DNA from: Lachnospiraceae bacterium
Lineage (GTDB): Bacteria > Bacillota > Clostridia > Lachnospirales > Lachnospiraceae
Length of the DNA: 64,000 nt
Assembly (NCBI GenBank): GCA_045117315.1
Contig: JBGUNJ010000204.1
Coordinates: 4,378-68,377, forward strand
Reading direction: 5' to 3'
Shown here: positions 29,676 through 49,425 of the stretch, in pieces
Position numbering within the stretch: position 1 is the stretch's first letter
Layout: each line of letters opens with the position of its first letter
Translations under genes and position numbers: made by a program
Notes under the pieces: generated by a model
Database searches by the model: none
The model's input: the letters and a program-made list of their open reading frames with translations, nothing else
What the model was told of the DNA's origin: nothing

Positions 29676-31073
29676 ATGAATTGTCCGTATTGTAATCAGG
29701 AAGTTATGCCGGGGAATAAGTTTTGCCCTAACTGCGGAGCAAAGCTGATACAAGATTCCAATATTAATCCAGGGGTGAATGCACAACCTGTTAATAATGG
29801 AATTGGTCAGAATGGCCAGTATCAACAGATGAATACTCCTCAGCCGCAGGGAGGACAGCCATATAATCAATATCAGCAGCAGGGACGACAGCAAGGGCAG
29901 CCAAATTATCAAACCCAATACCAGGGAGGACAGCCGGGGCAGCCAAATTATCAATCCCAATATCAGGGAGTCCAGCCGGGACAGCCATATAATCAATCTT
30001 CAATACCGTCCCCTAACAACCAGAATAATACTAAGAAGAGAAGAAGGAAAAAAGGCGGATTTGTCAAATATGTACCTTTAGTTGTTTGCGGCCTACTCGC
30101 CATTATTCTTTTGGGAGCATTGTTTTCGGATTCTGATGAAAAACCCCAGGAAAAAGAACAGGTCACAAGTGAAGAAAAGGCAATTACAGAAACAGAAGAA
30201 ACTGTTGAAAGCCAGGCGGAAGCAGAAAATGGAGAAGAAAACCAGGGCCAGGCTGAAATAGAAGGAAATGCATCTGATACTGAAATTATTGTGGAGGAGG
30301 AAAGGCGAGATCCTGCGGAATTAGATTTTTCTGCTGCCAGAGAAGAACTTGAAAACGGTGGGTATGCATATATCACACTGGAAGATATGAGCCGCTATAT
30401 TGTCAATATGACCGGACAGAGAATATATACAGTCATGACAGTGGGCGATGTTAAGTCTGACAGAGTTCAGACACATGCTGACGATGGTTTTCTTTACCAG
30501 TCATTCGTAACACCAATAGATTATTCAGAGTATTTTCATGAAGGCGATGTTGTTGCAGTTTTTGGAACTGTTGGTGAAACACAGAAATTATTCGGAGCGG
30601 ATTGGACCGATGTTGTTGACAGTCAAGTGTTTGCATATGGAGAAGAGGCGGAAGCTTATAGGAAAGATTCTACAGATGAGTCACTTTCGGGGTATCTTGT
30701 TTTGACAGAAGCAGTTGCGAACTCGCAAGGAAAAAACAAGATCAGCGAGGATGAATTCAAGTCTCTTTGTGAATACTATTCATATGAAGATATACTTCGT
30801 AATCCTGACAGCTATGAGAAGAGATATGCAGTTCTCTCTGGCGTAGTCGATCAAAGTGCTGAAGGTGTTTTTGGCTTGTATACCACTTTGTATATAACAG
30901 ATGGAAATGGCGATAAATGGGATTGCACAATCACTTATAAAGAAGGGCAAAGCCATATTCTGGAAGGAGACTATGTAACGGTTTATGGAATATTAAACGG
31001 TACATCGACAGCTACCACTGTTTTAGGACAACAAGTCACCATGCCTTCTCTTCAGATTGAATATGTTGAGTGA
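29676..31073 (+). CDS. Zinc-ribbon membrane protein with a Q/P/G/Y-rich region
   Basis: MNCPYCNQEVMPGNKFCPNCG is a zinc ribbon. QGGQPGQPNYQSQYQG-type repeats and a TM segment (YVPLVVCGLLAIILLGALF) follow. Strong RBS gagaggaggaaaaa. This is the first gene of the A+T-rich block. Confidence 0.65.
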   Translation: MNCPYCNQEVMPGNKFCPNCGAKLIQDSNINPGVNAQPVNNGIGQNGQYQQMNTPQPQGGQPYNQYQQQGRQQGQPNYQTQYQGGQPGQPNYQSQYQGVQPGQPYNQSSIPSPNNQNNTKKRRRKKGGFVKYVPLVVCGLLAIILLGALFSDSDEKPQEKEQVTSEEKAITETEETVESQAEAENGEENQGQAEIEGNASDTEIIVEEERRDPAELDFSAAREELENGGYAYITLEDMSRYIVNMTGQRIYTVMTVGDVKSDRVQTHADDGFLYQSFVTPIDYSEYFHEGDVVAVFGTVGETQKLFGADWTDVVDSQVFAYGEEAEAYRKDSTDESLSGYLVLTEAVANSQGKNKISEDEFKSLCEYYSYEDILRNPDSYEKRYAVLSGVVDQSAEGVFGLYTTLYITDGNGDKWDCTITYKEGQSHILEGDYVTVYGILNGTSTATTVLGQQVTMPSLQIEYVE

Positions 31074-31160
31074 ATAATTTCCGTTGAGAACAGTTAACAG
31101 GTTCAATATCGCAAATTATCTATTGCTGAAAATGGTGCATTCAAAGGCAGGTAGAAACTA

Positions 31161-32006
31161 ATGTCTACTGAGAACTATGTCTATAAAAAAGAAGTTGATT
31201 GGTCCCTCTTCAACTATGGTTTCGCTATTCCCTTGGAATATCAAGTGGTCTTCAAACAGATTGCCGGCCGCTTTCTTGAGCGTGGAGAATCTAAACCAAT
31301 CAAGCTTTATTTGAACGGAAAATCTTATGAAGCTAAGCTCCAGAACAACCGGATAGACAAAAAATTCGGAAGCAGGGCCGATATTGTTCAAATTCGCTAT
31401 TCTCAGAACTCGGACATTGCGATTGCGCTGAGAGGTTCCTTTCAGCGCAGCTACCTGTATATCCAGAAGATAAAGCAGATGCAGCAAAAAGGATCTAAGT
31501 CACGAGTGTCGCTGCCCGAGGATTACAAAGAGTATTTGGTAATTTACACCACCGAATATGATGATTCCTATATCCTTGAGGCCATCGGTTCAGAGGAAGT
31601 CGAAACGATGAGAGAGGCTGTTAAAGGGAAAGCAGAGCGTACGGTGGAGTCAGAAATCGATTACGAAGCTGTGGATGAGGGAGCCGGTATTCAAACAAAT
31701 CATCGATTGGTCAAGCTTAGGAAACTAAATAGGAAGATTGGAGAAAATCTGAAATTACTGTACGGGTATCGCTGCCAGCTCTGCGGTCAGCTGATTGGAG
31801 AGGAATTCGGTTCTCACATTGCAGAGGCTCATCACATAGAATATTTCGTGAAGAGCCTGAATAACGATGCCAGCAACCAGATTATCGTCTGTCCAAATCA
31901 CCACAGTATCATTCATGATGCGGATCCGGTCTTTGACAGGAAACGAAAGCTGTATAGGTACGGAAATGGGAAGGAGCAGAGGTTAGTTCTGAATCGACAT
32001 CTTTGA
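31161..32006 (+). CDS. HNH endonuclease with an uncharacterised N-terminal (possibly DNA-binding) domain
   Basis: The C-terminal CQLCGQ...AEAHHIEYFVKSLNNDASNQIIVCPNHHSIIHD is a beta-beta-alpha-Me HNH motif. The N-terminal ~110 aa (GFAIPLEYQVVF...IKLYLNGKSYEAKLQNN) are unassigned. Confidence 0.8.
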   Translation: MSTENYVYKKEVDWSLFNYGFAIPLEYQVVFKQIAGRFLERGESKPIKLYLNGKSYEAKLQNNRIDKKFGSRADIVQIRYSQNSDIAIALRGSFQRSYLYIQKIKQMQQKGSKSRVSLPEDYKEYLVIYTTEYDDSYILEAIGSEEVETMREAVKGKAERTVESEIDYEAVDEGAGIQTNHRLVKLRKLNRKIGENLKLLYGYRCQLCGQLIGEEFGSHIAEAHHIEYFVKSLNNDASNQIIVCPNHHSIIHDADPVFDRKRKLYRYGNGKEQRLVLNRHL

Positions 32007-32177
32007 TGTTTTTGTCTTTTGATATCTATTAAAAAAAGCTATGAACAAAGTACTCTGGGTCATGCCACACAGGATACAAAGAGAACAGACAAACTGAATT
32101 GGCTTGATAATGAAAAAACATAAGCTGAAGCAGCTATATCCATAGAGCGCATTAACTTAATCAGTTAAATTAATAAC

Positions 32178-32774
32178 ATGAATACAAACACCACACTTGA
32201 TTATTACAATAATAACGCGTATCGCTTCACAGCGGATACCCTGGATGTCGAATTCTCCGACATCCAGGACCATTTCCTTGCCGAATTGCAGCCCGGGGCA
32301 TTGATCCTTGATTTTGGTTGCGGTTCTGGCCGTGACAGCCGATATTTCCTTCAAAAAGGGTACAAAGTTGAAGCCTGCGACGGATCGGAAGAGATGGTGA
32401 AAACAGCAACCAAAAACGCGGGAATTCCTGTAAAGCAGATGTTGTTTTCTGAGCTGGATGAGCAGGAGCGGTTTGATGGGATTTTTGCCTGTGCTTCGAT
32501 TTTGCATGTGCCGTCAGCAGAGCTTCCGGACATTATCGGGAAGATGAAGAAAGCTGTGAAAAAGGGTGGCATTCTGTACATATCTTTTAAATACGGAACC
32601 TTTGAGGGGGTCCGCAATGGCAGGTATTTTACTGATCAGACAAAAGAGAGTCTCAAACAGATTCTTGATCAGGTCGGCGGACTAAACATTATCAGCACTG
32701 GAATTACAGGCGATGCCAGGCCGGGAAGAGAAGACGAGAAATGGCTGAATGTATTGCTTCGCAGGAGAGCTTGA
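32178..32774 (+). CDS. Class I SAM-dependent methyltransferase (small-molecule-type fold; no DNA-methyltransferase motif IV)
   Basis: ILDFGCGSGRDSRYF (motif I) and KVEACDGSEEM (motif II) are present. No (D/N/S)PPY or PC-Q motif is visible. Confidence 0.75.
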   Translation: MNTNTTLDYYNNNAYRFTADTLDVEFSDIQDHFLAELQPGALILDFGCGSGRDSRYFLQKGYKVEACDGSEEMVKTATKNAGIPVKQMLFSELDEQERFDGIFACASILHVPSAELPDIIGKMKKAVKKGGILYISFKYGTFEGVRNGRYFTDQTKESLKQILDQVGGLNIISTGITGDARPGREDEKWLNVLLRRRA

Positions 32775-35368
32775 ATAATACAATCGAATATTGTCAAAGC
32801 GAATTACTGAAACGGATTCAAGAAGACTGCGGACTGAAGCTGGCAGAAAACTATTACTATGATGAAAAGCATCACTCCGCAGTTCTGCTCTGTGATAAAA
32901 CCTGCGTCGTACTGGACTTTGATCTTTGCTCAGTCGATGAGAACACAGATAAGGTTTTTGACTACTCAAAATACTGCGAGATGCAGAATGCCTGGATGCT
33001 GTCCTCCGACAGATTATTCCGTTTCTATATTCCTGCGGAATCCTTTTCTGGGAAACCAGATTCATCTGATTCTACAGATTCCTCCCTGAAATCCTGTAGA
33101 ACAGATTTCATCCAGCCTGTCTGCGATGAAATCAACCATTGGCTGACCCTGGATCCCGGGAATATCGAGGTCAGTGATAACGGTGGATCATTTGATAAAG
33201 GGCATATTGATAATACTCCTCTTGAGAAGACATTCGAGGATTTATTTATTGATGCCTATGGTTATGATGCCTTGAATTATCTGCAGAAAGAGTACTCAAT
33301 ATCCCTTAATCAGGGAAGAAATGCTTTTGTTGATTATGTGATTGAGACTGCTGAAGGTACCTTTGCTGTAGAAGAAAACGGTGTTCGCTACCATCACCCA
33401 CAGATTATTCACTTGGCTGCTTACAGCAGACAACTGGAAAAGCAGAATACCCTAAGTCTTCTGGGATTCAAGACATACAGATTTTCTTTTGAAAACCTAC
33501 GATTCCGGGAGCAGGCAATCGACAGTATAAGGACCTTTTTCGGGCCGAAGAGCGGCTTCCGCAGTGCTCATCTGATTAAAGGTACAAGACCTTTCGCTCT
33601 CTATACCCATCAGGAGACCTTTCTGAAGGAAATGAATGAAGCCCGTGAAAATGGCATTACAACATCTTTGATTGTCAGTCCGACCGGTTCCGGAAAGTCT
33701 CAGATTGCGATTGAAGATATCAATGAGCTTCAGATAGAAGGCAAAATCAGCCGCGTACTGATTATGGTTCCGACCACCCGTATCCGTGAAGACTGGGAAA
33801 AGCGTCTTACTTCATACAGGGGTAAGCTCGATATTACCATTGATCTGTATAACAGATCCTTCCTGAGAAGGAGTGACACACCGCCGGATTATTATGATTA
33901 TCTGCTGTTTGATGAGGCGCAGCACGCGCAGGCGGCAAACTGTGCCAAGACCCTGCAGTTTTTTACCCCTAAATATCTGGTGGGCCTTACAGCAACTCCC
34001 GACCGCCTGGACCACAAAAAACTGGAAGATATCTTCGGCCATTACAAGACATCAATGACTCTGAAGGAAGCTATAGACAAGGATATTATCGCCAATATTC
34101 GCTGCTTCCGGCTTATATCCAATATCGATCTTTCCATGGTCCGTTATAACGGAAAAGATTATAACTATGCGGATCTGGAAAAAACTCTGATAGTGGAATC
34201 CCGCAACGAACTCATCGTAAAAACATTAAAGAAATACTTCTTCCCCAGAGAAGATTTCTATAAACAGGGGATACTGTTTTGTGTGAATGTAAGCCATTGT
34301 AAGAAGCTGGAAAAACTCATGACAGCTGCCGGATTTAAAGCGAAAGCTGTTTACGGCGGAAACAAGCACAATGACGAAATCTTTGAGAAATACGCGAACA
34401 GACAAACCCAGTTCCTTATATCCTGCCAGCTGATTTCGGAAGGGTGGGATTCCCCCCAGACCGAAGTGGTTGTCATGGCTCGTCCGACCCTGTCTAAGGT
34501 ACTCTACACACAGCAGATCGGACGCGGCGTCCGCAAATATCCTGGAAAAGAATGCCTCTATGTTATCGATGTGGTTGATAACTATGAAGGAAAGCTTTCC
34601 CCGATGAACTTCAATGCCCTGTTTGGACTGTCCCATTATTCGGATTTCATGGGCGTCAAAAACAATAACCATGACTATCTGTCAATCCTGGGACTGGACG
34701 AGACAGAGATTGCCATGCAGGAGATTGACATTCATACATTTGAAGAGAAATACAGCGGATATCTTTCTCCGGAGCAGGCAGCACGAGAACTCTTCATCGG
34801 CACTGCAACCATCATGAGCTGGTACAGAAAAGACAATTCCATCAGCTCCCTGCAACTTCCGATCGGATCACGCATGGTTCCGTATTTTTCTGAGGACGAC
34901 ATAGAAATAATCCGTGAAAGTCGCGGACTCGGACGTCACGATGACACAACTATCCTGAAAGACTTTGAAGATTTCATCGATGAAAACACACTGACATTCT
35001 CCTTCAAACTGATCTTCATGCTCAGCATGCTGAAACTGGCGGACAAGGAGGGCGAGGTCAATATCGATGACCTGATCAACGAATACCGTTCATTTTACGT
35101 TGACAGGATTGAACGAGGACTGCCGGTTGACAGACCAAATTGTGCGTATACAAAAGAATTCCTCGATGATCTTGTCAAAGTAAAAAGATCGATCCTGACA
35201 AACCCATTTGAAAAGTTTGAGCGCAAACGCTTTGTCTATTATTCAAAGGACCTGAACATGCTGTCCTTCCATCCGGCACTGTGGGAGCAGATGACGAAGG
35301 AGAAGAAACAAGTGATCAGGGAGAAGGAAGAACGGTTTTTGGAAGAGTATTATGAGAAGATTGGGTAA
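32741..35368 (+). CDS. SF2 DEAD/DEAH-box (type III restriction Res-like) helicase with an N-terminal DUF559/Vsr-like nuclease fold and a C-terminal extension
   Basis: Nuclease-like VDYVIETAEGTFAVEENGVRYHH...GFKTYRFSFENL, then SPTGSGKS (motif I), LLFDEAQHA (II), GLTATP (III) and QQIGRGVR (VI). The start overlaps the methyltransferase gene by 34 nt. Confidence 0.8.
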   Translation: MAECIASQESLNNTIEYCQSELLKRIQEDCGLKLAENYYYDEKHHSAVLLCDKTCVVLDFDLCSVDENTDKVFDYSKYCEMQNAWMLSSDRLFRFYIPAESFSGKPDSSDSTDSSLKSCRTDFIQPVCDEINHWLTLDPGNIEVSDNGGSFDKGHIDNTPLEKTFEDLFIDAYGYDALNYLQKEYSISLNQGRNAFVDYVIETAEGTFAVEENGVRYHHPQIIHLAAYSRQLEKQNTLSLLGFKTYRFSFENLRFREQAIDSIRTFFGPKSGFRSAHLIKGTRPFALYTHQETFLKEMNEARENGITTSLIVSPTGSGKSQIAIEDINELQIEGKISRVLIMVPTTRIREDWEKRLTSYRGKLDITIDLYNRSFLRRSDTPPDYYDYLLFDEAQHAQAANCAKTLQFFTPKYLVGLTATPDRLDHKKLEDIFGHYKTSMTLKEAIDKDIIANIRCFRLISNIDLSMVRYNGKDYNYADLEKTLIVESRNELIVKTLKKYFFPREDFYKQGILFCVNVSHCKKLEKLMTAAGFKAKAVYGGNKHNDEIFEKYANRQTQFLISCQLISEGWDSPQTEVVVMARPTLSKVLYTQQIGRGVRKYPGKECLYVIDVVDNYEGKLSPMNFNALFGLSHYSDFMGVKNNNHDYLSILGLDETEIAMQEIDIHTFEEKYSGYLSPEQAARELFIGTATIMSWYRKDNSISSLQLPIGSRMVPYFSEDDIEIIRESRGLGRHDDTTILKDFEDFIDENTLTFSFKLIFMLSMLKLADKEGEVNIDDLINEYRSFYVDRIERGLPVDRPNCAYTKEFLDDLVKVKRSILTNPFEKFERKRFVYYSKDLNMLSFHPALWEQMTKEKKQVIREKEERFLEEYYEKIG

Positions 35369-35622
35369 TGGCAAGCAATTGTTTCTAAGACTGCCCTGAT
35401 TAATAAGTAATAGATTAGCATCAAAGTAGAAATTCACTGTTTTTCAATATGATATTGTGCTTTTACCATGGCGCTGTTATATCATATTATTTTTGCTTAA
35501 ACTACACAGTCTAAGGAGTCAGCACATGGTATTCATCAAAAACAAAAAAAGATTTTCGTAATGAAAACAGGTTAATTATCTATCCACCTAATCAACTAAC
35601 AAAAGACTATGAGGATTCGTGA

Positions 35623-36133
35623 AAAAGATTAGCTACAATCGTACCAAGGGCACTTATGGCAGCGCCACATTTACGGAGAAAAGAACAGCGACTATTCACG
35701 CACTTACAGATAAAGAAGAATGTGCAGGATTATAGCTTTGCCGACGGCTATGCAAAGGAAACAGTGTAGAACGCCGTATGGTCGAGGATATGGATCTAAC
35801 GGAAGAAAATCTGCATCTCTACCAAGTTGTCGAAGGGAATCTACATGCCGACACCTGTGGGAAATAATCTTCTCCGTCTGGTCCATTGCCTTCAACATAT
35901 GGTCAGGGAAGCATATCTTCTTTATTGCCGAACCAAAAGGCACTATGGAGACGCTGTACATCAAGCCCATAGAACAGGCCAAAATCAATTGTGTAAAGAA
36001 GCTGTTTGCAGACCTCTACGCAGTAGACATGGTTTACCGTAATGTGGACAGCTGCCAGAGTCTGTTTAACATCATGGAGAGTTGCAACAAAGAACTAGAA
36101 AGGATAATACTATGGCGCAGCATATTACTGTAA
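35623..36133 (+). pseudogene. Frameshifted remnant of the 3' end of a type III-like restriction enzyme Res subunit
   Basis: Fragments in two frames resemble a Res C-terminal nuclease region. These are IYMPTPVGNN then (frameshift) FSVWSIAF, then GKHIFFIAEPKGTMETLYIKPIEQAKINCVKKLF, compared with the TPxGxYxPDWAI ... YFVxETKG ... KIxCxxxHF layout recalled from memory. Stops interrupt the upstream sequence. Confidence 0.45.
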
Positions 36134-39100
36134 GAGTCCCGTGGCACGATGATGGATGGAAGGGAACGGTCTGCCAGAATCCATCTTCTAACATGGCTTG
36201 TTTACGACTGAAAAACATCCACGAGAATCGTAATGACGTAGTTGAGTGTAAGCTCTGCGGGCAGGGGATGATAGAACATGAACGTGACATTCCCTGCATA
36301 GAAGAGGGTGCTGCTTTTATGTGCGATCATGAGCTTCATAAAATGACTGTGCATCCTTATAAGAAGAGCAATCCGGACACACATGGTCATTTTTTGGAAA
36401 CGGAACTAATCTTTCCTGCGTATTCCTTCCCTGCCAGACCATTTTCCTGGCTTATGCGGGATAATTTGAAGAAGAGAGCGGAATTCTATGGCATCAACTA
36501 TAGACCGGAAATCGAACCTGAACTGAAATTTAAGACAATCTGGGTACAGGCAGCAGACAATCACAGGGCTGTCTTTGATTACTTTTATAAAGATGTTGTT
36601 CCAGATACTTCACTGTGCATAGCGTATGCTAAGCAGGTCCCATTTGTTGAGGATCACCGCCGAGTGATTATCGGAATGGGACATGTAAAAAAAATAGTTC
36701 CTGCTATTGAGCACAGGCATACAGAAGAAGGCGTTCTTCGCTCCATGATCTGGGACACGATGGTGTGTCATTCGATTAGAGACCATCATAATAACGGTTT
36801 TGTTATTCCATATCAGGAAATGATGAAATATGCGGAGGAGCATCCCGAATTTGATCTTACCTCTATTGTTGTTTTTGCGCCAGAAGATGCATTTGACGAG
36901 TTTTCTTATGCAACGGAACATGTCAGTCATGATGCTGTAATTGATGTGATTTTGTCATGTATTAACTCTTTCAGAATCATTCAGAAATGTCTGGATGAAG
37001 ACTATACCAATGTGCTTTCATGGCTGAATAGTCAATTGGACACTGTTTGGAAAGACCGGGGTCCTTTTCCTGGATTAGGGCCTGTTCTGACTGCTTTTGG
37101 AATTAAATTAGGAATCCCTATGGCAAAAGAAATCAGGGAGCAGATGCAGAAAACAGACGATTACTGGGGGTATCTCGATAGAGTAATCGCCCAACCGGAA
37201 AGCTATCTTTCCAAAGAGATTGCTTCAACGGTAACACCTATCATCCAAAAGACATGGAAAGATCTTAAAAGAATTAGAAAAGAATACCTCAAACTTCTCT
37301 GCCGCTTCTCTTTAAATATTGATCAGGCAAATGCTCTTTACGATCAGAATACGCGGGAGAATGAACAGATACATTGCACAGACCTAGAGATTCTTGAAAA
37401 CCCTTACCTGCTCTATGAAAAAATGAGATTGAAGCAGGATGCCCTATATCTTTCTGTACAGAAAGTAGACCGCGCAATCTTTCCTGTTCCCTCCATTTCC
37501 GAGAAGTACCCTCTGCAAGCTCCTTCAAAGTTGCAGTCGGATAATGATGAACGTCGTGTCAGGGCAGTTGTCATTTCTGTCCTGGAAGCTGCTGCAGACA
37601 GCGGACATACATTTTTGCCCTGTAATATTGCCGTGAAGCATGTACAGGAGCTTACTCTTGATCCAGCCTGTCCAGTCACTTCAGATATGATTTCTGCAAT
37701 TGAAGCATTTATGTCCTTGGAAATCATCAAACGTGAGATGAAAAACGGAGATGAGTATTATAAACTTGTTCGTCTAAATGTGTTTGACCACGAGATAGAG
37801 CGTCGCATCAAAAAAAGGATGAAGGCAAAAAAGATTGACGTACAGGCAGACTGGAGGCAGATGCTGGATAAAAAATTTGATGGACTAGGTGCTGGAAAGC
37901 CTGGTTCTAATCTGGAAGATATGGCTAGGGCAGAAAAAGCAGAAGCCTTAAAAGTTCTTGCAGAATCACGTCTGTCTGTTCTGATCGGTGACGCAGGAAC
38001 CGGAAAAACTACTGTCTTGTCTGTTCTGTGTAGCCATCCGGATATTGCAGCAGGTGGCGTGTTGTTGCTTGCACCCACCGGTAAAGCAACAGTACGGCTT
38101 GTTGAAAGCGTTGGAACTGGTGGGCAGAAATTCACCGCATTAAACGTAGCCCAGTTTCTGATCAAAAGCCATCGTTTTGACTGGAAGAATTTCCGATACA
38201 GGCTTTCAAATGAAAACTATACGGATCTCCCGGAAACGGTGATTGTAGACGAAGCTTCCATGCTGACAGAAGAAATGTTCGGAGCATTGATTCAGGCAGT
38301 CGGGACCGTAAAACGTATTGTTTTCGTTGGAGATCCAAACCAGCTTCCTCCCATTGGTGCAGGAAAACCCTTTGTAGATCTTGTAAATCTCCTCAAAGAA
38401 GACCTTCCAGAGATACAACCTCTGGATCAGCCGCGGGTTGCCCCTTGCTTCGCTGAATTGAGAATCAACCGAAGACAACAGCTGAAACAGCAGATTGAGG
38501 AAGAACGGCTTGATGTGAGCCTTTCACATTGCTTCACCCGCTCCGAGAACCTGGAAGATGATGAAGGAATTATCTCCGAGATTGTGAAAGGGACAAGCGA
38601 AGAGATACAAATCCTTCATTGGGAATCTGGAGAAGAACTGGAAAGCAAATTGCTTCACATAGTGGCAAAAGAATTGCAGATGAAAGATCCAGATGATCAG
38701 GATGGCTTTAATCGTGCTATGGGTGCCAAAGTACTTGAATATGAAACCTTTTTTAATAAGGAATGCGTAGAATATGTGAATAAGTGGCAGATTCTCGCGC
38801 CTATTCGGAACATGCCCCAGGGTGTGATAAATATGAACAGGCTCTTTCATCAGAAATATCGAGGTCGTCAGCTTGAACTCTCACGGCGCACAGGTTATAA
38901 AAAGAAGATTCCAGTTGCTTATGGATCCGAGGAAATTGTTTATGGAGATAAGGTCATAAATGTAATCAATTCCAAAAAAATTGCATTCCCTAAGGATTCC
39001 TCCGCGAATAACTATGTTGCAAATGGAGAAATCGGTATTGCCTGCGGTAGCTATGCCAAGAAAAATCAAAAGGCAAATAATTATTTGAATGTGTGTTTTT

Positions 39101-39837
39101 CTTCTCAAAAAGGATTCACCTATTCATACGAGAAAAAGGACTTCAACGACGAGACCGGTTCAGAAAGCCTGGAACTCGCTTATGCCCTAACTGTCCATAA
39201 AGCGCAGGGAAGCCAGTTCGATACCGTAATCCTCGTCTTAGCAGAACCATGCAGGATCATTTCCCGTGAGCTCCTGTATACTGCACTCACGAGACAGAAG
39301 GATAAGATTATCATTTTGTATAATCAGGAGCCGTATCATCTAATGAAATATTCCTCTGATGTTCATTCGGATATTGCCAAAAGATTCACGGATCTCTTTG
39401 CTGATGTATTTACAGATGATGATGGTGCTCACAGACCTAAGTACACAAAAGTTGGAGACACCTTCTACGATGAGAATCTGATTCACAAAACTGCCCGTGG
39501 AGAACTTGTACGCACTAAATCTGAAGTCATTATTGCAAACGCGCTTTTCTATAATGATCTAACCTATGAATATGAACCAAAATTGATTCTGGATGGTCAT
39601 GTTAAGCGTCCTGATTTTAAAATCATCGATGCAGACACTGGTGACATTTGGTACTGGGAACACTGCGGATTGATGTCCGATAAACGTTACGTGAAGCGTT
39701 GGGCGGATAAAGAACAGTTTTATGCAAAACATGGAATTGTGCGCGGCAAGAACCTGATTGTCACTGAAGAAAAAGCAGGAGAAGGAATAGAATCCGATAA
39801 GATTGATGCACTTATAAAAGAGGTTTTTGATCTCTAA
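36112..39837 (+). CDS. Large RecD/Dda-like SF1 helicase with a Cys-rich N-terminal domain and a C-terminal PD-(D/E)xK nuclease domain
   Basis: GDAGTGKTT (Walker A, 37987-38013), LLLAPTGKA, VIVDEASML, VFVGDPNQLPPIG and YALTVHKAQGSQFDTVILVL are present. The C-terminal RTKSEVIIANALFYNDLTYEYEP...KRPDFKIID...IWYWEHCG is nuclease-like. The N-terminus is ITVRVPWHDDGWKGTVCQNP..NMACLRL. ATG 36112 is preceded by gaaagga. Confidence 0.85.
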   Translation: MAQHITVRVPWHDDGWKGTVCQNPSSNMACLRLKNIHENRNDVVECKLCGQGMIEHERDIPCIEEGAAFMCDHELHKMTVHPYKKSNPDTHGHFLETELIFPAYSFPARPFSWLMRDNLKKRAEFYGINYRPEIEPELKFKTIWVQAADNHRAVFDYFYKDVVPDTSLCIAYAKQVPFVEDHRRVIIGMGHVKKIVPAIEHRHTEEGVLRSMIWDTMVCHSIRDHHNNGFVIPYQEMMKYAEEHPEFDLTSIVVFAPEDAFDEFSYATEHVSHDAVIDVILSCINSFRIIQKCLDEDYTNVLSWLNSQLDTVWKDRGPFPGLGPVLTAFGIKLGIPMAKEIREQMQKTDDYWGYLDRVIAQPESYLSKEIASTVTPIIQKTWKDLKRIRKEYLKLLCRFSLNIDQANALYDQNTRENEQIHCTDLEILENPYLLYEKMRLKQDALYLSVQKVDRAIFPVPSISEKYPLQAPSKLQSDNDERRVRAVVISVLEAAADSGHTFLPCNIAVKHVQELTLDPACPVTSDMISAIEAFMSLEIIKREMKNGDEYYKLVRLNVFDHEIERRIKKRMKAKKIDVQADWRQMLDKKFDGLGAGKPGSNLEDMARAEKAEALKVLAESRLSVLIGDAGTGKTTVLSVLCSHPDIAAGGVLLLAPTGKATVRLVESVGTGGQKFTALNVAQFLIKSHRFDWKNFRYRLSNENYTDLPETVIVDEASMLTEEMFGALIQAVGTVKRIVFVGDPNQLPPIGAGKPFVDLVNLLKEDLPEIQPLDQPRVAPCFAELRINRRQQLKQQIEEERLDVSLSHCFTRSENLEDDEGIISEIVKGTSEEIQILHWESGEELESKLLHIVAKELQMKDPDDQDGFNRAMGAKVLEYETFFNKECVEYVNKWQILAPIRNMPQGVINMNRLFHQKYRGRQLELSRRTGYKKKIPVAYGSEEIVYGDKVINVINSKKIAFPKDSSANNYVANGEIGIACGSYAKKNQKANNYLNVCFSSQKGFTYSYEKKDFNDETGSESLELAYALTVHKAQGSQFDTVILVLAEPCRIISRELLYTALTRQKDKIIILYNQEPYHLMKYSSDVHSDIAKRFTDLFADVFTDDDGAHRPKYTKVGDTFYDENLIHKTARGELVRTKSEVIIANALFYNDLTYEYEPKLILDGHVKRPDFKIIDADTGDIWYWEHCGLMSDKRYVKRWADKEQFYAKHGIVRGKNLIVTEEKAGEGIESDKIDALIKEVFDL

Positions 39838-39877
39838 ACAGCAGACGGAACAGGTTAAAAGGAAAGAAATAGAGAAG

Positions 39878-42800
39878 ATGGATGAGAAATATATCGTAAA
39901 TACAATAAACACATTTCTTCATGCTTCAGCCAGTAGTCTTTGCGCCTGGCTTGAGAAAAGACTGCCCTGCGTGTCTGATACATGGTGGGAAGATTGTGTT
40001 CTTGGGAGCTTAAGTCCCTTGCAGCGTGAAAACATACAGAATATGGGATACAGCAAGCTTTCAGAACTTAGTCTCTCGGAATTACTTCGTATTACCAATA
40101 AGTCATGGTATGACATCTGTACGGTGGCTGAACTCCCATCTTCTCTGCGTGAACTAGTGCGAGATATGATCTCGGTATGTAACAACTGGTCATATTCTGT
40201 AAGCACGATTCCAGGTAAAGATATAATTATTTCGGATCTTCATATAATTTCTTCTTTTATAGACGCGATAGGTGAAGGAACTGCTAAAAATAAGGAAATT
40301 GCAGAACTGATAGAGGAAATAGAAAAGCCAGACAGTTTGAAATCGGTTCGAAGAAGTACCGGTAGTTTCGAAAATGAAAGCGGGCAGTCGTCAGCCGATT
40401 CTGCAGAAGATGAGATAAAGGAAAACAGCCTTATATATCTTGTCTCAGATCCAAACGTCAAAGGAGTGGTCCGATCCATTAAAGACCTAGGCAGTATCAA
40501 AAAATATGTGGTTTTCATCAGCAATGATGTAGGAAGTCAAGTTTTTTACTCCGGGCAGATTGCACTTGTCAGAGAAAGTACTGCTTATAATTGGGTGAGT
40601 GCGGACACGGTCAGAAGTTTTCTGGCTGCATACCAAATAAAATATCCTTCTTCACAAAATCTATATTCGCTCAATTCCGCAAAAATTGATTTTGTACCAT
40701 ACCAGTTCAGACCGGCATTGAAGATGATCCATGCGGATGAACCTCGAATACTGATCGCTGACAGCGTTGGTGTCGGCAAAACGATTGAGGCTGGTCTGAT
40801 CATAAAGGAATTGGAGGCAAGAAATGATATACAGAGTATTGTAGTCATATGCCCACGGCCATTAGTTGCTGAGGGAAAATGGAAAATGGAGATGGAACGC
40901 TTCGATGAAGGCTTTTCATCCCTGGATGGAGCGACATTCAGGCAAATATTGTCTGATACTGATCGTGACGGTGAGTGGCCATCTCAATATAACAAAGTCA
41001 TCATTCCATATTCGATAATGGACAGCCGTTCCTATGAAGGGGAAGAGCAGGGAAAAAAGAGATTATTTGGATTATCAGAACTATTTCCAGAACCACACTT
41101 TGACTTGGTAATTGTTGATGAGGCACATCATATACGAAACGGCAGCATGGAGAAAGAAAAAGCCTTTGCGTATAAGTGCACAAAATATTTTTGTGACCAT
41201 GCTGATGCAGTTGTCATGCTGACGGCAACCCCTTTGCAAACCGGAGACAAGGATTTGTTCACGTTACTGAATGTCCTGCGTCCTGACATAATTATCGACG
41301 AGCAGACATTCCAGGTTATGAGCAAACCGAATGAATACATTTCGAGGGCAGCTCATTGCATTCGAACTGCAGAGTATAATTGGGCAAAAATGGCTATAAA
41401 GGAACTGCTGGGAGTTCGAAAAACACAGTGGGGCGATAATGTCATATCCGAAAATCCGCTCTATGACAGTATCCTACAAAGGCTGGAAAAACATGACATT
41501 ACAAGAGAAGAACGCGTCAGGCTGATTTCTGATGTAGAATCCTTGCATAGCTTTTACACCCTGATCAACAGGACCAGACGCCGTGATATTCAGGATTTTT
41601 GTATTCGCAGAACATTTACCTATGAAGTTGCTTTCACGGAATATCAGCAGGATCTGCATGACGAACTGCTTGAGTTTGAAAAGAATGCGCTGTCCATACT
41701 TCACGATCCGCGGGGCGTTTCTTTTATGATGTCAACGATTAAAAGACAGGCTGCAAGCTGCATTTTTGGACTTGGACCTCATATTCGAGGAATTCTTGAA
41801 AGAAGAATCCGGCAGATGAATGATGATCCTGATTTGGATTATGACTTTATCAATCTTGATGCCGCAGCAACAGACCGTCTGTCTCAGACTGCAAAACGGG
41901 TTCTGGACCTTGCAGAAAACCTTCCGGAAGAAGATCCAAAGTTTGATGAATTGATAAAAATCATCGAGGTGAAATATCAACTCGAAAACAATAAGATTAT
42001 GTTATTCAGTACCTTTCGTCATACGCTTGCATATTTGAAAAAGAGGCTGAAGAATCTTGGATATAGGGTTGAGCAGATTGACGGAAGTGTTAAGGATGAT
42101 ATCCGATTCGCATATAAAGAAAGGTTTCAACTGAGTAAAAACGAACCAGATGCAATTGATATCCTTCTATTTACAGAAGTAGGTTCAGAGGGGCTTGACT
42201 ATCAGTTTTGTGACACCATGATCAACTATGATCTGCCATGGAACCCTATGCGGATTGAGCAGAGAATAGGCAGAATAGATCGGCGTATGCAGAAAAGTGA
42301 AGCTGTAAACATTTATAATATTATCACGGAGAATACTGTCGATGCCGTAGTCTATCATAGATGTCTTGAAAGAATAGGCGTATTTGAACGTAGTATAGGT
42401 GAATGTGATGCAATATTAGGTGAAATAGCGGCTGGCATCGAGATTATTATGATGGACAATTCCCTAACGGATGAAGAACGAAAGATAAAGTTAGAGCAGA
42501 TGGCTGACAATGAAGTCAGAAAGATGCAGGAACTTGAAAAACTGGAGGAAGAAGAAAAGGATTTACTTGGATTCGATTTTTCTGAAATTGGGACTGCACA
42601 GGAAATCAAACATGCGGAAAATCCCTGGCTGACACAAAGAAACCTTCGGCGCCTGGTAGAACAGTATCTGAAAGAAAGACTTGGGGAGGGACCCTATATA
42701 CTGGGATCTTCTTCAATTAATACATTGCGGCTTTCTGCACAAGCCCGGAAGCTGATACGGGAAGACTTGTATAGGCTCTCTGGAAGGGGAAAGCATGCAC

Positions 42801-43483
42801 ACACAATATGGGATGCTTATTTGGGTGGAAAAAAGCCAACTATTCCAATCACATTCGATTCAGAAGCGGCAGCAAAGGCCAGGGACAATTCTACAATATT
42901 TGTGACTCCCATGCATCCCCTTGCACGTCAGGCTGCGGATTTGCTCACCAAGAGTTCAACGATGCAGTTGTGCCTGCATCTCTATTCTGACAAAATTCCT
43001 GCAGGACAGTATTTGTATTCAGTATATGCATGGAGATATGCCGGTTTTAACTCATACACACGAATTATTACAGTTTGTGAGAATGAAGAAATTGAATCTG
43101 AGTTGCCTGACATTCTAGAGGATTCAACCGAATATCCTATCGGGTCTTCAAATGCATTTGACTGGACGGGCTTGGAACTTCGCCATGTGATGAAGTGGCA
43201 GAATGCTGTTGCAGACTATCAGAGACGTATTAATACATCTAAAGCCTTTAAGTTAGAAACTCTTTCCAATAACTACAGGAATCAGATGAGATCCCTTGAG
43301 CGAAAAATTAACGTTGCTGCCAATGATTCCATAAGACGTATGTATATGAGCGAAATGGATAATATATCAGATATGTTTGAAAAGAAGAAAATAGAAATCG
43401 AGCAGACTAGGGCAGAAATTTACACGAATATACTGGTCAATGGTGTAGTTAGAGTCTCAGAGGAGATAGAGAGTCATGCTTAG
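39878..43483 (+). CDS. SNF2-family (RapA/HepA-like) helicase with a ~290-aa N-terminal extension
   Basis: ADSVGVGKTIEAGLIIKEL (motif I, from 40760), VIVDEAHHIRN (II, 41117-), MLTATPLQ (III) and LFTEVGSEGLDYQFCDTMINYDLPWNPMRIEQRIGRIDRRMQ (V-VI) are present. ATG 39878 is preferred over the TTG at 39827 in the ORF track. Confidence 0.85.
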   Translation: MDEKYIVNTINTFLHASASSLCAWLEKRLPCVSDTWWEDCVLGSLSPLQRENIQNMGYSKLSELSLSELLRITNKSWYDICTVAELPSSLRELVRDMISVCNNWSYSVSTIPGKDIIISDLHIISSFIDAIGEGTAKNKEIAELIEEIEKPDSLKSVRRSTGSFENESGQSSADSAEDEIKENSLIYLVSDPNVKGVVRSIKDLGSIKKYVVFISNDVGSQVFYSGQIALVRESTAYNWVSADTVRSFLAAYQIKYPSSQNLYSLNSAKIDFVPYQFRPALKMIHADEPRILIADSVGVGKTIEAGLIIKELEARNDIQSIVVICPRPLVAEGKWKMEMERFDEGFSSLDGATFRQILSDTDRDGEWPSQYNKVIIPYSIMDSRSYEGEEQGKKRLFGLSELFPEPHFDLVIVDEAHHIRNGSMEKEKAFAYKCTKYFCDHADAVVMLTATPLQTGDKDLFTLLNVLRPDIIIDEQTFQVMSKPNEYISRAAHCIRTAEYNWAKMAIKELLGVRKTQWGDNVISENPLYDSILQRLEKHDITREERVRLISDVESLHSFYTLINRTRRRDIQDFCIRRTFTYEVAFTEYQQDLHDELLEFEKNALSILHDPRGVSFMMSTIKRQAASCIFGLGPHIRGILERRIRQMNDDPDLDYDFINLDAAATDRLSQTAKRVLDLAENLPEEDPKFDELIKIIEVKYQLENNKIMLFSTFRHTLAYLKKRLKNLGYRVEQIDGSVKDDIRFAYKERFQLSKNEPDAIDILLFTEVGSEGLDYQFCDTMINYDLPWNPMRIEQRIGRIDRRMQKSEAVNIYNIITENTVDAVVYHRCLERIGVFERSIGECDAILGEIAAGIEIIMMDNSLTDEERKIKLEQMADNEVRKMQELEKLEEEEKDLLGFDFSEIGTAQEIKHAENPWLTQRNLRRLVEQYLKERLGEGPYILGSSSINTLRLSAQARKLIREDLYRLSGRGKHAHTIWDAYLGGKKPTIPITFDSEAAAKARDNSTIFVTPMHPLARQAADLLTKSSTMQLCLHLYSDKIPAGQYLYSVYAWRYAGFNSYTRIITVCENEEIESELPDILEDSTEYPIGSSNAFDWTGLELRHVMKWQNAVADYQRRINTSKAFKLETLSNNYRNQMRSLERKINVAANDSIRRMYMSEMDNISDMFEKKKIEIEQTRAEIYTNILVNGVVRVSEEIESHA

Positions 43484-46400
43484 AGAAATAAATGAATTGT
43501 ACGGAAATACTGACTGCAGAGATCTTGGATCCCGTCAACTGGAAGAGTTGAGGGATGGCTTAAAAAACGTTTCACCTGAAGAAATCAAATCGTCATCCGA
43601 TGGGATTATGTATATTAAGCTACTCCATATGTTCAGATTTGCGGTTGCGGAAAATGACAAGTTTCATGGGGAGAATTATCCAAGCCTCCTCAACTCTTTG
43701 CTATCAGTCGGAGAGGATGGACTATACTCTAACAATCTTCGTTTTATTTTTGAATTGATTCAGAATGTTGATGACTGCGATTATCCAAACTCTGAAAACT
43801 GTCGGCTTGATATGCAATTTCGATTTGATGAAGATGAGATTATCCTCACATATAATGAAGTTGGATTTACACCGTTTAACGTTTTTGCTATCACAGGAAT
43901 TGCAGAAGCTGCTAAGAATATTTCTTCTTCAAAAAATGAAATTGGTGAAAAGGGGATTGGATTCAAGTCGGTATTTGGCGTTGCTGATAAAGTCTTGATT
44001 CAAAGCGGCTGGTTTTCTTTTATTCTGAATAAAGAAAACTTTACAGTACCTATTTCAGCATATTCATCATCCTCCGATCCTTACATTGAGGGAACGAAAA
44101 TGACTCTGTATGTTCCCGGGAAAGCAAAGCTTATTTACAGTCAAATCAAAAACCAGTATTGCAAAAAAGAAGCAATCTTCAGTCGAAATCCACTGCTCTT
44201 TCTGAATAAGCTTACGTCTCTGAATATCTTCTTCGACGAATGGAGAAGAATGGAGTTTCATGTGTCTAAGAAAGCACATATGACAGAAGGCGGTATTCAC
44301 AGAGAGGACAATATACAGGTCTTTGTTGACCTGCATGATTATGATAACGGACGAGATACGAATGTAACAGAATCATTTATGTGTACCAGATATACCCTTC
44401 CTGTTACATACAGCAGGGAGGCTTGCCAGGCCCGCTATGGAGATAATACAAAGGTGGGTGAAAATGGCGGGAAAAGAATGCTGTTACAAGCGGTTCTTCC
44501 GACCCCGGAGCATGTTGCAGATGTCGGGAACGGATCATTATACTCTTTCCTCCCTACACAGCTGAAGCTGACTGTGCCGATTGTAATACATGTTCCCTTT
44601 AAGCTGGATGCGTCAAGAGAATTTGTTGATCCGCAGAATCATAATCGTTGGTTTCTTGAATCTTCACAGAAACTGTCAGAATTGATGGAGTATCTGTATA
44701 AAGACTGGTGTAAGACTGTTAGAAGTGACATTGTATTCTTTCTTCCAGGGGCCAGAGAGAGCCTGTTTGCTCCAAACAATGGGAAAGAAAAGTGTCTCAG
44801 TGATAACAAAGATTTCCAGGGGATTCATTTTTTGAAGATGCCTGTCTTTATAACAACAGACGATGAATACTGTCCCCATCAAGATGTTTTTTCTTTTAAC
44901 CCGGATGAAAATGTGATGGATCCGGAAAGAGTATACAAAATGCTTATGGTAGAGGAAAATCTTTTCCTGGTACCTGAAACAGTGAATCCAAGAAAATATG
45001 ATATAAAAATTTTTAAAGATGCAGCTAAGGAACTTCTGCAAAAGGCCATTTCCAACCCGAATGTGACAGAGGAAGCGCTTGAATATTTAGATAGTGTTTC
45101 ATATTTATATGGTCCAAAGGATATTCCTGACAACAAGCAGATTAGCCTGACATGCAGACAGATTGAGATCATTATGAAGCATGAACAGCTTGCGAAGATC
45201 TTTACAGAAGTAACCTGCAGGTTGCTGAAAATGCAAAAAAACATCCAAGTATCCATTGCTGATTTGAAGCCTGTTCCCATTCACAAAGCTGTTCAAGCGG
45301 GCTTTGATAAAAGTGAAACCCCAAAGCGTGTGGAAAGATACTTGGATAAAGTGAATTTGCAAAGTGTATGCTTGGATATTAAGGATAACCAGTATTTGCC
45401 TTGCAGTAACGGTCTTGTATTATCTATGGCAAATCCGACATCATCCTTAGCGTCTTTATGCTTTGCTGTTGATGAAAAGGATACATTTGCAATACGGATA
45501 AAGCTGAAAGAAGCTTCTGAACGCCTGAACCAATTTATTGAAGATGATGCAGGTTCTGCTGAGGATTATTTAAGAGAGCTTCGAAATATCAGGCTGACGG
45601 TTAGGGATTCTTTGGGTAATGAAGGCTACAAAAGCTATATAAATCTAATCCTCCGTTCGGGAACAGAGCGTAAACGTTTTATTCAGGAGCTTATCCAAAA
45701 TGCTGATGATTGTGTATACGATAAAGATATTATCCCAGCATTTTATTTACAACAGGATGGAAGCAAAGTTGTCACACAATATAATGAGGAGGGGTTTACC
45801 CGAGAGAACATCCGCTCTATTACAGCTATTGGGGAATCTACCAAAAACAGACTGCTCAAAGGGGAATATCAGACAATAGGCGAAAAGGGGGTTGGCTTTA
45901 AAACAGTCTTTGCTGTTGCATCTCAGATTAATATATTCAGTGGTGAATACAATTTCTCACTGACAGATGAGGCGCCTACAATTCCAAAGATTTATAAACG
46001 TACTGACCTTAGTAGAGTAGATGGTACAAGGATGGAGATTTTCCTGAAGGGAAACAGGAATATCATCGACTTTAATGAAAAAAACATACTTGAGCTCTGC
46101 CTTTGCCTGAGGCAATTAAAAGAAATCACAATTGGGCCCCACAAAATCAATATATCTGACACTGACGATACAAGAACATTGGTTATTGATGGAAGAAAAC
46201 AGGTATTTAGAAAGTTTGTACATAAGTTTGAAATTTCAGACCCAGATGCGATTAAGGAACGCGCAAGGGGTATGCATGTTGTTTTACCACAGCAGCAGAT
46301 TATTTGCTATGTTCCTGAACGGTTTGGCTCTCAGGAATATCATATTTACAGTGGGCTTCCGACAAGACATATGGTAAAGATCCCTGTTGCTTTCGATGCT

Positions 46401-48188
46401 CCTTTTGAGCTGACGACTTCCAGAGAGCAGATTGAAGAAGATTGCGAGGCATGGAATGGTCGTGTACGTCTGGAAATGTATAGGGCATTAAGGGAACTTA
46501 TTGTCTTTCTTCGAAATGAGCACAGAGTAGATATTCTTAGGCTTACCAGATATGTCCCCAGGTTGAAGGGAAAAATCAGAGAGTACGTGAATGATATTTT
46601 TGATAGCCCCTATTTGACCGGCTACAATTTTTTGGAAATCTTGAAAAACACCGAGATTTTACCAACTTATAATCACGATATATTTGAATCGGCAAACAGT
46701 GGACGAGCTCTGAGGTTTCCTGAAGTGGCACATTTCCTGTTTAAACAGGGCTGTTTTGGGGAGATTGACCCTTCTTCCGTTCTTGATATTAATTCAAAAG
46801 ATTATGAAGCGGCTATTAATGCGCTGGACTGTAAGTCTGCAATGTTTGATCAGGTATTTCCTTTGCTAATGATATACTCTGATAATTACGTACATGATAA
46901 AGAATATAGAACATTACTATATGAATATTTACAGGAATCACCTCATGAATATGCTGATCAGATAAAAAAACTTGCCATTATACCTGTATATGGAAATGTT
47001 CCAGATGCCACACGATTCGTGAAGTGGCAGCCGGACAAGATATTTGTCAAGAAAAATGTAAATAAATCAACGGATGATTATTTCATCTTAAACACGGATG
47101 AGCTTTCAAAAGCTTTCTGTGAAAGAATGTTAAATGTAAACATCAATGAGATGAATGATGAATGGGAACGTAGAAAATATGACGAGAAATTTAGAGCAAT
47201 CCTTGACTGGGAGGATGTAGAAGATATTTACAATATGCTTCTCTATGAATTCAAATATGGGAATGTGCGGAGAAACTATCCTTCCGGTCTACCAATGGAT
47301 TATAAGGAACGTATCCCCCTGAAAAACAGGAATGGGGTAATCGCCCGACAGCATCTGTTCCTCTGTCGGGAAGAAGTAGAATACTTCCCTGTAGCTATAG
47401 TTAAACAGATTACAGTAGCTGATGAATGTGCAAGGATGGCTGAATCAATTGGCAGTACTGATCTCTGTGATGTACATTATGAAGATTTTAATTACGACAA
47501 GCAGTTAGACGAAGATGATATTGAAGTTTTGATGGATGATTACTTTAATAATTCAGATGAGATTCTTAGAGGCTTTTATCAAGACGGGCTTCTGTCGGAT
47601 GAATTATTAGAAGAATATAACCTGAATTATCTGGCGAATAGTCGTGTAGATGACACTATGGATGATGAAGACTTTCCTAATGATCCTGTTTATAACAGAG
47701 AACAGCTGAGAAAGCACGTGAACAAGAAATTTGCTTCGCTGGTAAAAATAATTCCAATTGTTGTCGAAAGGACCGTTTATCGGGGGAAAGACCAAAGCGG
47801 AAATGTTTTTGATTTGCAAAACCGGGATACACGCGAAGGCGCGCTTCATATTTACGCATCATCTAAAAAGTATGGAATTTGTTTCTGCCAAATGTGCAAA
47901 AAGAGGAAGCCTAGCTCATTCATTGAGGTAAATAATCTTCAGATTTTACCCAAATACTATTTTCCTCAGATGAGAGTATCATTATGCCTTGAATGCAGTA
48001 AAATCTTCGAGGGCCTCCGTAAGAATGACTCCGTGCGAAAAGAGTATTTTAATTCGATAAAAAATCAAAAGATTGGAAACGAGGGAAACATTTGTGTTCC
48101 GATTGGTAATGACGAGTCATTAACCTTTACTGCTAAACACTTGGCTGAGATTCAAGAAATATTAAAAAGGTATGGGGATGATATTTAA
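43476..48188 (+). CDS. 1570-aa protein with two sacsin/MORC-like GHKL (Bergerat-fold) ATPase modules and a C-terminal Cys4 cluster
   Basis: There are two N-box-like motifs: RFIFELIQNVDDC (from about 43752) with GEKGIGFKSVFGVADKV, and RFIQELIQNADDC (from about 45687) with GEKGVGFKTVFAVASQI. The C-terminus has CFCQMCKK...CLECSKIF. The ATG overlaps the upstream stop by 8 nt, with gaggaga upstream. Confidence 0.8.
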   Translation: MLREINELYGNTDCRDLGSRQLEELRDGLKNVSPEEIKSSSDGIMYIKLLHMFRFAVAENDKFHGENYPSLLNSLLSVGEDGLYSNNLRFIFELIQNVDDCDYPNSENCRLDMQFRFDEDEIILTYNEVGFTPFNVFAITGIAEAAKNISSSKNEIGEKGIGFKSVFGVADKVLIQSGWFSFILNKENFTVPISAYSSSSDPYIEGTKMTLYVPGKAKLIYSQIKNQYCKKEAIFSRNPLLFLNKLTSLNIFFDEWRRMEFHVSKKAHMTEGGIHREDNIQVFVDLHDYDNGRDTNVTESFMCTRYTLPVTYSREACQARYGDNTKVGENGGKRMLLQAVLPTPEHVADVGNGSLYSFLPTQLKLTVPIVIHVPFKLDASREFVDPQNHNRWFLESSQKLSELMEYLYKDWCKTVRSDIVFFLPGARESLFAPNNGKEKCLSDNKDFQGIHFLKMPVFITTDDEYCPHQDVFSFNPDENVMDPERVYKMLMVEENLFLVPETVNPRKYDIKIFKDAAKELLQKAISNPNVTEEALEYLDSVSYLYGPKDIPDNKQISLTCRQIEIIMKHEQLAKIFTEVTCRLLKMQKNIQVSIADLKPVPIHKAVQAGFDKSETPKRVERYLDKVNLQSVCLDIKDNQYLPCSNGLVLSMANPTSSLASLCFAVDEKDTFAIRIKLKEASERLNQFIEDDAGSAEDYLRELRNIRLTVRDSLGNEGYKSYINLILRSGTERKRFIQELIQNADDCVYDKDIIPAFYLQQDGSKVVTQYNEEGFTRENIRSITAIGESTKNRLLKGEYQTIGEKGVGFKTVFAVASQINIFSGEYNFSLTDEAPTIPKIYKRTDLSRVDGTRMEIFLKGNRNIIDFNEKNILELCLCLRQLKEITIGPHKINISDTDDTRTLVIDGRKQVFRKFVHKFEISDPDAIKERARGMHVVLPQQQIICYVPERFGSQEYHIYSGLPTRHMVKIPVAFDAPFELTTSREQIEEDCEAWNGRVRLEMYRALRELIVFLRNEHRVDILRLTRYVPRLKGKIREYVNDIFDSPYLTGYNFLEILKNTEILPTYNHDIFESANSGRALRFPEVAHFLFKQGCFGEIDPSSVLDINSKDYEAAINALDCKSAMFDQVFPLLMIYSDNYVHDKEYRTLLYEYLQESPHEYADQIKKLAIIPVYGNVPDATRFVKWQPDKIFVKKNVNKSTDDYFILNTDELSKAFCERMLNVNINEMNDEWERRKYDEKFRAILDWEDVEDIYNMLLYEFKYGNVRRNYPSGLPMDYKERIPLKNRNGVIARQHLFLCREEVEYFPVAIVKQITVADECARMAESIGSTDLCDVHYEDFNYDKQLDEDDIEVLMDDYFNNSDEILRGFYQDGLLSDELLEEYNLNYLANSRVDDTMDDEDFPNDPVYNREQLRKHVNKKFASLVKIIPIVVERTVYRGKDQSGNVFDLQNRDTREGALHIYASSKKYGICFCQMCKKRKPSSFIEVNNLQILPKYYFPQMRVSLCLECSKIFEGLRKNDSVRKEYFNSIKNQKIGNEGNICVPIGNDESLTFTAKHLAEIQEILKRYGDDI

Positions 48189-48623
48189 TCATAAATATAC
48201 CGATACTTTGAAACTTCAGGTTGCGAAGTATGAATTATAGCAGATTATGCCATATACTAAAGATTGTTGTGACAATTAGGAATGTTTGATGATTCTTGGA
48301 TTATCGGGACATCGTTCCTGTAACTTTCGGACAAGATTCCTGAATTATCTGGACAAACTTACATCTTATAAAAGGTGGCCTTAGGGTGTTTTAAACATTC
48401 TAAGGCTGTACCATATGCTATGCACATCTACAAAAAGACCTTCAAAAGAGTGCAGATGAATAGATGTAGAAGATAACTGCTGCGATGGAAAACGTATGCA
48501 GGATACTAATGCAAGCGCAGAGTTGCAACGATATCACGCCAAAACATCTGGCAGGAGCACCGGCAAAAAGTAAAGAAATCCATTTTGGTAATTGGTTTTT
48601 AGGTAAATAATTGAGAGGAAGTC

Positions 48624-49355: not shown

Positions 49356-49425
49356 ACAATTATAGATAGAAACATCTGTGTCTGAAAAAATAAATATTAT
49401 TTTATTGAAGCTGGGACTTTACGAC

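Follow-up and report, generated by a model that had tools for sequence, protein, structure and literature searches.

A predicted PUA-like N-terminal module in the helicase-nuclease family PDC-S68, a candidate reader of modified DNA, from a Lachnospiraceae bacterium

What does the long N-terminal region of a bacterial helicase fused to a candidate nuclease recognise? The question is raised by a gene at positions 36112-39837 (+) of a 64,000-nucleotide stretch of Lachnospiraceae bacterium DNA (GenBank assembly GCA_045117315.1, contig JBGUNJ010000204.1, positions 4,378 to 68,377), hereafter the window. The original prediction, made from the letters of the window, left about 625 residues ahead of the Walker A motif unassigned and proposed that they sense a target. 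Our analysis points to an elaborated PUA-like domain in residues 1-272, which we take, with a probability of about 0.5, to be the recognition module of a type IV-restriction-like, single-chain superfamily 1B (SF1B) helicase-nuclease, with a modified base as the leading ligand.

The open reading frame spans 36082-39837. Its start was assigned to the ATG at 36112, which lies nine bases after an AAAGGA and corresponds to the start methionine of 56 out of 58 aligned homologues; the stop is at 39835-39837, and the product has 1241 amino acids. The protein is a full-length member of the PADLOC candidate family PDC-S68: the hidden Markov model (HMM) PDLC05065 matches residues 2-1239 over profile positions 5-1219 of 1221 (E=0, 1510.9 bits). 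Three-part build and length are the same in about 1000 homologues of the family (HMMs PDLC05064-05066), with no architectural difference. A region search with residues 1-470 matched 955 proteins, nearly all of about 1230 residues and 60-90% identical, while 1284 clusters (E≤1e-3), again nearly all of equal length, were retrieved in an exhaustive search of 50%-identity representatives. Two variants carry further domains: P0136 (1406 residues) has an additional C-terminal Schlafen/AlbA_2 domain, and P0266 (678 residues, probably cut) bears a Swt1-like HEPN RNase domain (HEPN_Swt1) N-terminal to the PUA-like domain. The PDCs are 145 candidates, predicted since some of their copies are embedded in BREX, DISARM or type I restriction-modification operons, and they were placed in PADLOC as predictions, without individual assays (Payne, Hughes, Fineran and Jackson; bioRxiv 10.1101/2024.01.29.577857). 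Because this status rests on guilt by embedding, the defence role of PDC-S68 is that of a candidate only. The literature searched yielded neither a mention of the name PDC-S68 nor any domain assigned to its N-terminus.

The fold of the N-terminal region was assessed on AlphaFold2 (AF2) models, which were compared with two PDB libraries by VIA-align and with three libraries by Foldseek. The model of residues 1-480 (predicted local distance difference test, pLDDT, 95.3; predicted template modelling score, pTM, 0.94) is alpha/beta up to about residue 272 and helical beyond. With this model, VIA-align was dominated by helical-hairpin matches, and Foldseek gave no significant match, its weak matches being enriched in EVE, YTH, McrB-N, VcaM4I and Lon-N. 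Since the helical hairpins had swamped the search, residues 1-275 were folded separately (pLDDT 96.6, pTM 0.92). The top 47 rows of the resulting pdb_via search all belonged to the EVE/YTH/ASCH-type reader class, and nearly all top VIA-align matches were readers of this type, superposed over 105-128 residues, that is, most of each target domain. The best Foldseek matches in the PDB were MJECL36, THYN1 and PH1033, and the best in BFVD was an EVE protein. Members of the PUA-like superfamily (PH1033 1wmm, MJECL36 2p5d, THYN1 5j3e, Mmi1 5o8m and ZmASCH 5guq) are the best, and almost the sole, structural matches of residues 1-272, and the predicted model can be superposed on the pseudo-barrel of known members. 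An hhalign comparison with an alignment of 15 EVE domains found a local in-register match over the W..N, GD-like, hhYh and hhG.G.V strands (P=0.024). Residues 1-272 (36112-36927, +), the family's own N-terminal module, are predicted to adopt a PUA-like beta-barrel of the EVE/YTH/ASCH kind, enlarged and divergent, with a family-specific excursion between strands 1 and 2.

This domain has no sequence relative in Pfam, NCBIfam or the PDB, and no description of it was found in the literature searched. Searches of these three databases with residues 1-480, both as a single sequence and as a profile, gave no genuine match; rows for the haemagglutinin HA2 were dismissed as helical noise. No match to a housekeeping domain emerged from the Pfam and NCBIfam searches. 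A feature search of the ESM Atlas retrieved unnamed clusters only, all below 0.9, and an Atlas structure search returned the clusters of the PDC-S68 family itself plus weak Nmad3, Nmad2 and DUF8426 rows, with template modelling (TM) scores of 0.30-0.33 by query. Kinship to Nmad3 is not claimed, given an hhalign probability of 0.4%; a literature search on Nmad3 found nothing relevant.

Conservation is concentrated in a few positions of this domain. The protein begins MAQHITVRVPWHDDGWKGTVC, and the Cys-rich opening first described is borne out by 6 Cys and 9 His within the first 93 residues (16% Cys plus His vs 3.9% in the remainder; binomial p=3e-6). The PWHD.GW motif, suspected of being a conserved signature, proved to be one. 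It belongs to RVPWHDDGWKG (residues 8-18, 36133-36165, +), located right after strand 1. Conservation was counted over the 58 sequences of alignments A1 and A2, which are 28-60% identical to the query. Invariant across them are R8, W11, D13, G18, N27, P110, S167, Y172, W214, H220, P233 and P320, and at least 90% conserved are V9, W16, C21, P24, C30, C62, E65, H81, W113, W144, Q151, K174, R184 and R223; P10 of the signature is found in 52 out of 58 (about 90%). Among the Cys and His positions, conservation extends only to C21, C30 and C62 (57/58 each) and to H4, H12, H81 and H220, and leaves out C46, C49 and C71. The sole CxxC pair, C46/C49 (CKLC), is among the positions not conserved.

The conserved Cys triad C21/C30/C62 (36172-36297, +) lies where strands 1 and 2 are linked by a mostly helical excursion. 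Among some 275 homologues whose N-terminus is complete, it is lost as a set only in P0203, where the three positions read D/A/W; this joint loss suggests that the cysteines act as one unit. In P0216, a Leu is aligned at C21. We consider that the triad probably holds a structural metal ion, a candidate zinc brace, together with a histidine: H81 (36352-36354, +; 55/58) is one candidate for the fourth ligand, H4 (55/58, one H-to-C swap) and H220 (58/58) being others. A classical zinc ribbon or zinc finger built on C46/C49 is ruled out, as that pair is not conserved and the conserved pattern is C-x8-C-x31-C plus His; nor did a search of the 58 members give a consistent zinc-ribbon match in Pfam.

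Downstream of the PUA-like domain, residues 273-388 (36928-37275, +) form an all-helical connector in the 480-residue model, with generic helical matches only. It contains the element W..RGPxPGLGxxLxAxG (residues 313-334, 37048-37113, +), whose W313, R316, G317, P320, G321, G323, L326, A328 and G334 are each present in at least 52 of the 58 homologues. The element sits between helices 299-316 and 322-329, and the pattern suggests a helix-hairpin-helix-like (HhH-like) element. Residues 389-600 (37276-37911, +) correspond to a RecD2/RecD-type N-terminal region. Its first part, residues 389-455, including the NPY motif (N430-P431-Y432), matches RecD2 positions 139-192 weakly in hhalign (P=0.0014, probability 18%); the NCBIfam models TIGR01448 and TIGR01447 (RecD2/RecD) align strongly from residue 472-476, and Pfam HHH_RecD2 matches residues 477-501 (E=0.0045). 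An unassigned region of about 625 residues was thus too generous an estimate, for some 235 of them belong to the N-terminus of a RecD2-type helicase, from about residue 389 by the weak match or from 472-476 by the strong ones.

The SF1B helicase core (37933-39336, +; AAA_30 2.9e-25, AAA_19, UvrD_C_2) follows, with its Walker A, DEAS, GDPNQLPP, TVHKAQGSQFD and YTALTR motifs intact. The Walker A, GDAGTGKT, occupies residues 626-633 (37987-38010), exactly where it had been placed. From about residue 389-476 on, the protein is homologous to RecD2 (TIGR01448), in the N-terminal region as in the helicase core, whereas RecD2 lacks the extra 390-residue N-terminal module and the C-terminal nuclease. 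Identity with the housekeeping RecD2 was rejected: TIGR01448 scores 204.7 bits against a cut-off of 500 and aligns over profile positions 199-461 only, and a true RecD2 (866.8 bits) is encoded elsewhere in the same genome, on contig C6 (G000:C6). A second RecD2-like match (G000:C144:26909-28378; profile positions 268-712, E=1e-169) lies in a 971-residue open frame distinct from both the true RecD2 and the PDC-S68 gene. The C-terminal domain, residues 1090-1241 (39379-39834, +), is a PD-(D/E)xK-like nuclease candidate with E1138, E1155, P-D1168-F, W-E1183-H1184 and K1200. In 58-71 homologues, E1138, F1169, E1183 and H1184 are invariant, and E1155, D1168 and K1200 are near-invariant (69-70 of 71). 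Its Pfam matches to PD-(D/E)xK-type families are weak (TPD in 12 members, DUF790, RmuC), and a PDB profile search of this domain gave no match.

On these grounds, we favour a role of residues 1-272 in recognition. The PUA-like barrel would read a non-self feature of nucleic acid, most likely a flipped-out modified base, held in a pocket that may be lined by the aromatics W11, W16, W113, W144, Y172 and W214 plus H220; among these, W11, Y172, W214 and H220 are invariant and W16, W113 and W144 near-invariant. Among possible ligands we put a modified base first, since the nearest folds are those of base-flipping readers that type IV enzymes employ. The HhH-like connector, as a putative clamp on the DNA backbone, and the RecD2-type N-terminal region would hold the DNA; target binding would commit the ATP-driven 5'-3' SF1B motor to the bound molecule, and the PD-(D/E)xK-like domain would then cut it, the whole protein serving as a single-chain anti-phage or anti-plasmid enzyme. 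The original guess of target sensing, with a modified base among its options, accordingly gains from the conserved signature and from a predicted PUA-like reader fold, a class that type IV enzymes use for modified bases, although half of the cysteines are variable.

Several observations weigh against this interpretation. The Pfam families EVE (PF01878), YTH and ASCH remain unmatched at E≤1 in all 58 members, and the hhalign probability is only 2% vs EVE and 0.4% vs Nmad3. The invariant or near-invariant polar residues R8, D13, N27, E45, E65, K174, R184, H220, R223 and E269 would also fit a catalytic site, and PUA-like folds, such as the Lon N-domain, also bind unmodified RNA or proteins. The N-terminal domain moreover lacks the modular reuse typical of reader domains, as in no case was it found fused to another effector: the 77 short forms that bear it come mostly from short contigs, as fragments, and have no further Pfam domain, and no reuse with other nucleases was found among proteins of 151-557 residues.

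The best surviving alternative, which we regard as unlikely but worth serious attention, is that the domain recognises something unmodified, for example RNA, a DNA end or the junction of a single strand with a duplex. In that role it would load or anchor the 5'-3' helicase, and non-self would be sensed through structure, for instance the ends of linear phage genomes or replication intermediates. PUA, ASCH and some YTH domains do bind unmodified RNA, and the Mmi1 YTH domain ranks with the best matches; entry of RecD2-type motors requires a 5' single strand, the HhH-like clamp directly follows the PUA-like domain, and the HEPN_Swt1 RNase domain of P0266 is located at its N-terminus. Most of the best matches are nevertheless base-flipping readers of modified bases, and invariant Trp and Tyr residues as dense as these suit a base cage better than a groove binder, although neither point is decisive.

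The surroundings of the gene bear on its function and on a further alternative. The PDC-S68 gene is surrounded by other defence-type genes, in a 20-kb stretch whose guanine-cytosine (GC) content is 0.40-0.44 vs about 0.52 in the flanks; over the whole block of defence-type genes (30000-50000) the values are 0.38-0.44, which is consistent with a horizontally acquired island. The family is accessory: the N-terminal domain was not detected in any of the 24 same-genus or 16 same-order genomes searched, and in a phylum-wide sample 5 of 401 genomes had it. Homologues occur on plasmids in four phyla (Bacillus, Rhizobium, Vibrio, Embleya, Sphingomonas, Bartonella, Paracoccus and Hymenobacter). One is present on 15 B. 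cereus megaplasmids; on the one plasmid inspected (L038, NZ_CP091973.1, 11956-24825), it lies between an integrase and a DISARM drmA-DUF1998-helicase block.

In four loci, an SNF2 helicase with an N-terminal HEPN_Swt1 domain and a sacsin-like (TmtA-like) ATPase adjoin the PDC-S68 gene, in permuted order (39827-48188 in the window; 1277-8257 in L001; 1841-8851 in L043; 1855-8991 in L044). The pair is downstream in the window and upstream in the other loci, ending only 9 bp before the PDC-S68 start in L044. An obligatory three-gene system was rejected, the pair being absent from five loci. Neighbourhoods differ and some lack the pair; the PDC-S68 gene is therefore an autonomous unit that often travels with it. 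In L003, the gene stands alone beside integrases and McrBC/LlaJI, and in L045 alone among metabolic genes, with no adjacent methyltransferase in either locus.

These arrangements matter for the proposal that the N-terminal domain is a regulatory or protein-sensing module, which would keep the helicase-nuclease auto-inhibited until a phage or partner protein, such as the neighbouring SNF2 and sacsin-like ATPases, binds. The recurrent pair in the window, L001, L043 and L044 would suit it, as would the Lon N-domains, PUA-like protein binders, among the weak Foldseek matches. However, the Lon matches are weaker than those to EVE and YTH and disappear in the single-domain VIA search, and the gene occurs alone in L003, L045, L035, L037 and the B. 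cereus plasmids, so there is no obligate partner; we consider this explanation improbable. Least probable of all is an enzymatic domain, which would hydrolyse in the manner of ASCH or else modify or excise bases, with the metal site and the invariant Asp, Glu and His at work, given the lack of sequence kinship to the ASCH or Nmad families, the dedicated nuclease domain already in the protein and invariant aromatics more numerous than expected for a hydrolase site.

Other features of these loci were also recorded. The locus of a distant homologue (L035, 3-8244) has a 528-residue gene of unknown family that overlaps the PDC-S68 start by 4 nt, and a 931-residue N6_N4 methyltransferase 60 nt downstream of the PDC-S68 gene; this arrangement may represent a multi-gene variant that protects itself. 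Both in the window (48624-50127; Macro and DUF6994) and in L044 (13428-16410; Macro, then ADP_ribosyl_GH plus Macro), the helicase/ATPase block is followed by Macro-domain genes, which suggests a shared island composition. A 137-residue open reading frame at 35720-36133 (+) overlaps the start of the PDC-S68 gene; with its Pfam RE_endonuc match (E=5.6e-5) and its correspondence to the C-terminal end of PADLOC REase_III, it looks like what cassette turnover has left of a type III-like restriction gene.

The reading of residues 1-272 as a recognition module invites comparison with type IV enzymes that use PUA-like readers (Thermococcus gammatolerans McrB-N/McrBC 6p0g, VcaM4I EVE-HNH 6yex, PD-T4-3 9u75 and SauUSI). 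PDC-S68 resembles them in a reader-like domain, a nucleoside triphosphate (NTP)-driven motor and a nuclease, the last only a candidate in PDC-S68, on the basis of the conserved E..PD..EH..K pattern and the weak Pfam matches. They also share the defence-island setting, and stand-alone PDC-S68 loci, such as L003 and L045, lack a cognate methyltransferase; in L035, one follows the gene. The motor of PDC-S68 is an SF1B RecD2-type helicase, in contrast to the AAA+ GTPase or superfamily 2 (SF2) helicase of the type IV enzymes; all its parts are in one chain, its reader is a separate sequence family and its modification dependence is putative. Such a single chain, uniting a PUA-like reader with an SF1B helicase and a PD-(D/E)xK nuclease, lies outside the described type IV architectures. 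A precedent for an EVE-like domain at the N-terminus of a defence helicase is DrmA of DISARM class 1 (7s9w_A), where it is a predicted reader of modified bases (preprint 10.1101/2025.09.15.676423). Unlike PDC-S68, DrmA is an SF2 YprA-type helicase of a multi-gene system with a methyltransferase, and it has neither the Cys triad nor a fused nuclease. A bolder reading, which we hold only tentatively and think rather doubtful, is that with PDC-S68 a type IV restriction enzyme would for the first time be powered by an SF1B RecD-type helicase, and that the N-terminal module would be a new metal-braced PUA-like branch with a ligand, for example a phage hypermodified base, outside known EVE, YTH, SRA and ASCH recognition.

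The PDC-S68 family is large, with about 1300 clusters at 50% identity in several bacterial phyla and on plasmids, and the reader-like domain that it bears is unannotated and marked by a distinctive Cys triad. For the defence candidate PDC-S68, this provides a testable hypothesis that points to residues for mutation and substrates to offer. Type IV restriction owes its specificity to modules that read modified bases, and such readers are also useful in epigenetic mapping. If the ligand is new, the family would add a recognition specificity and a new motor class to modification-dependent restriction; if it is not a modified base, an EVE-like fold would serve another kind of non-self sensing.

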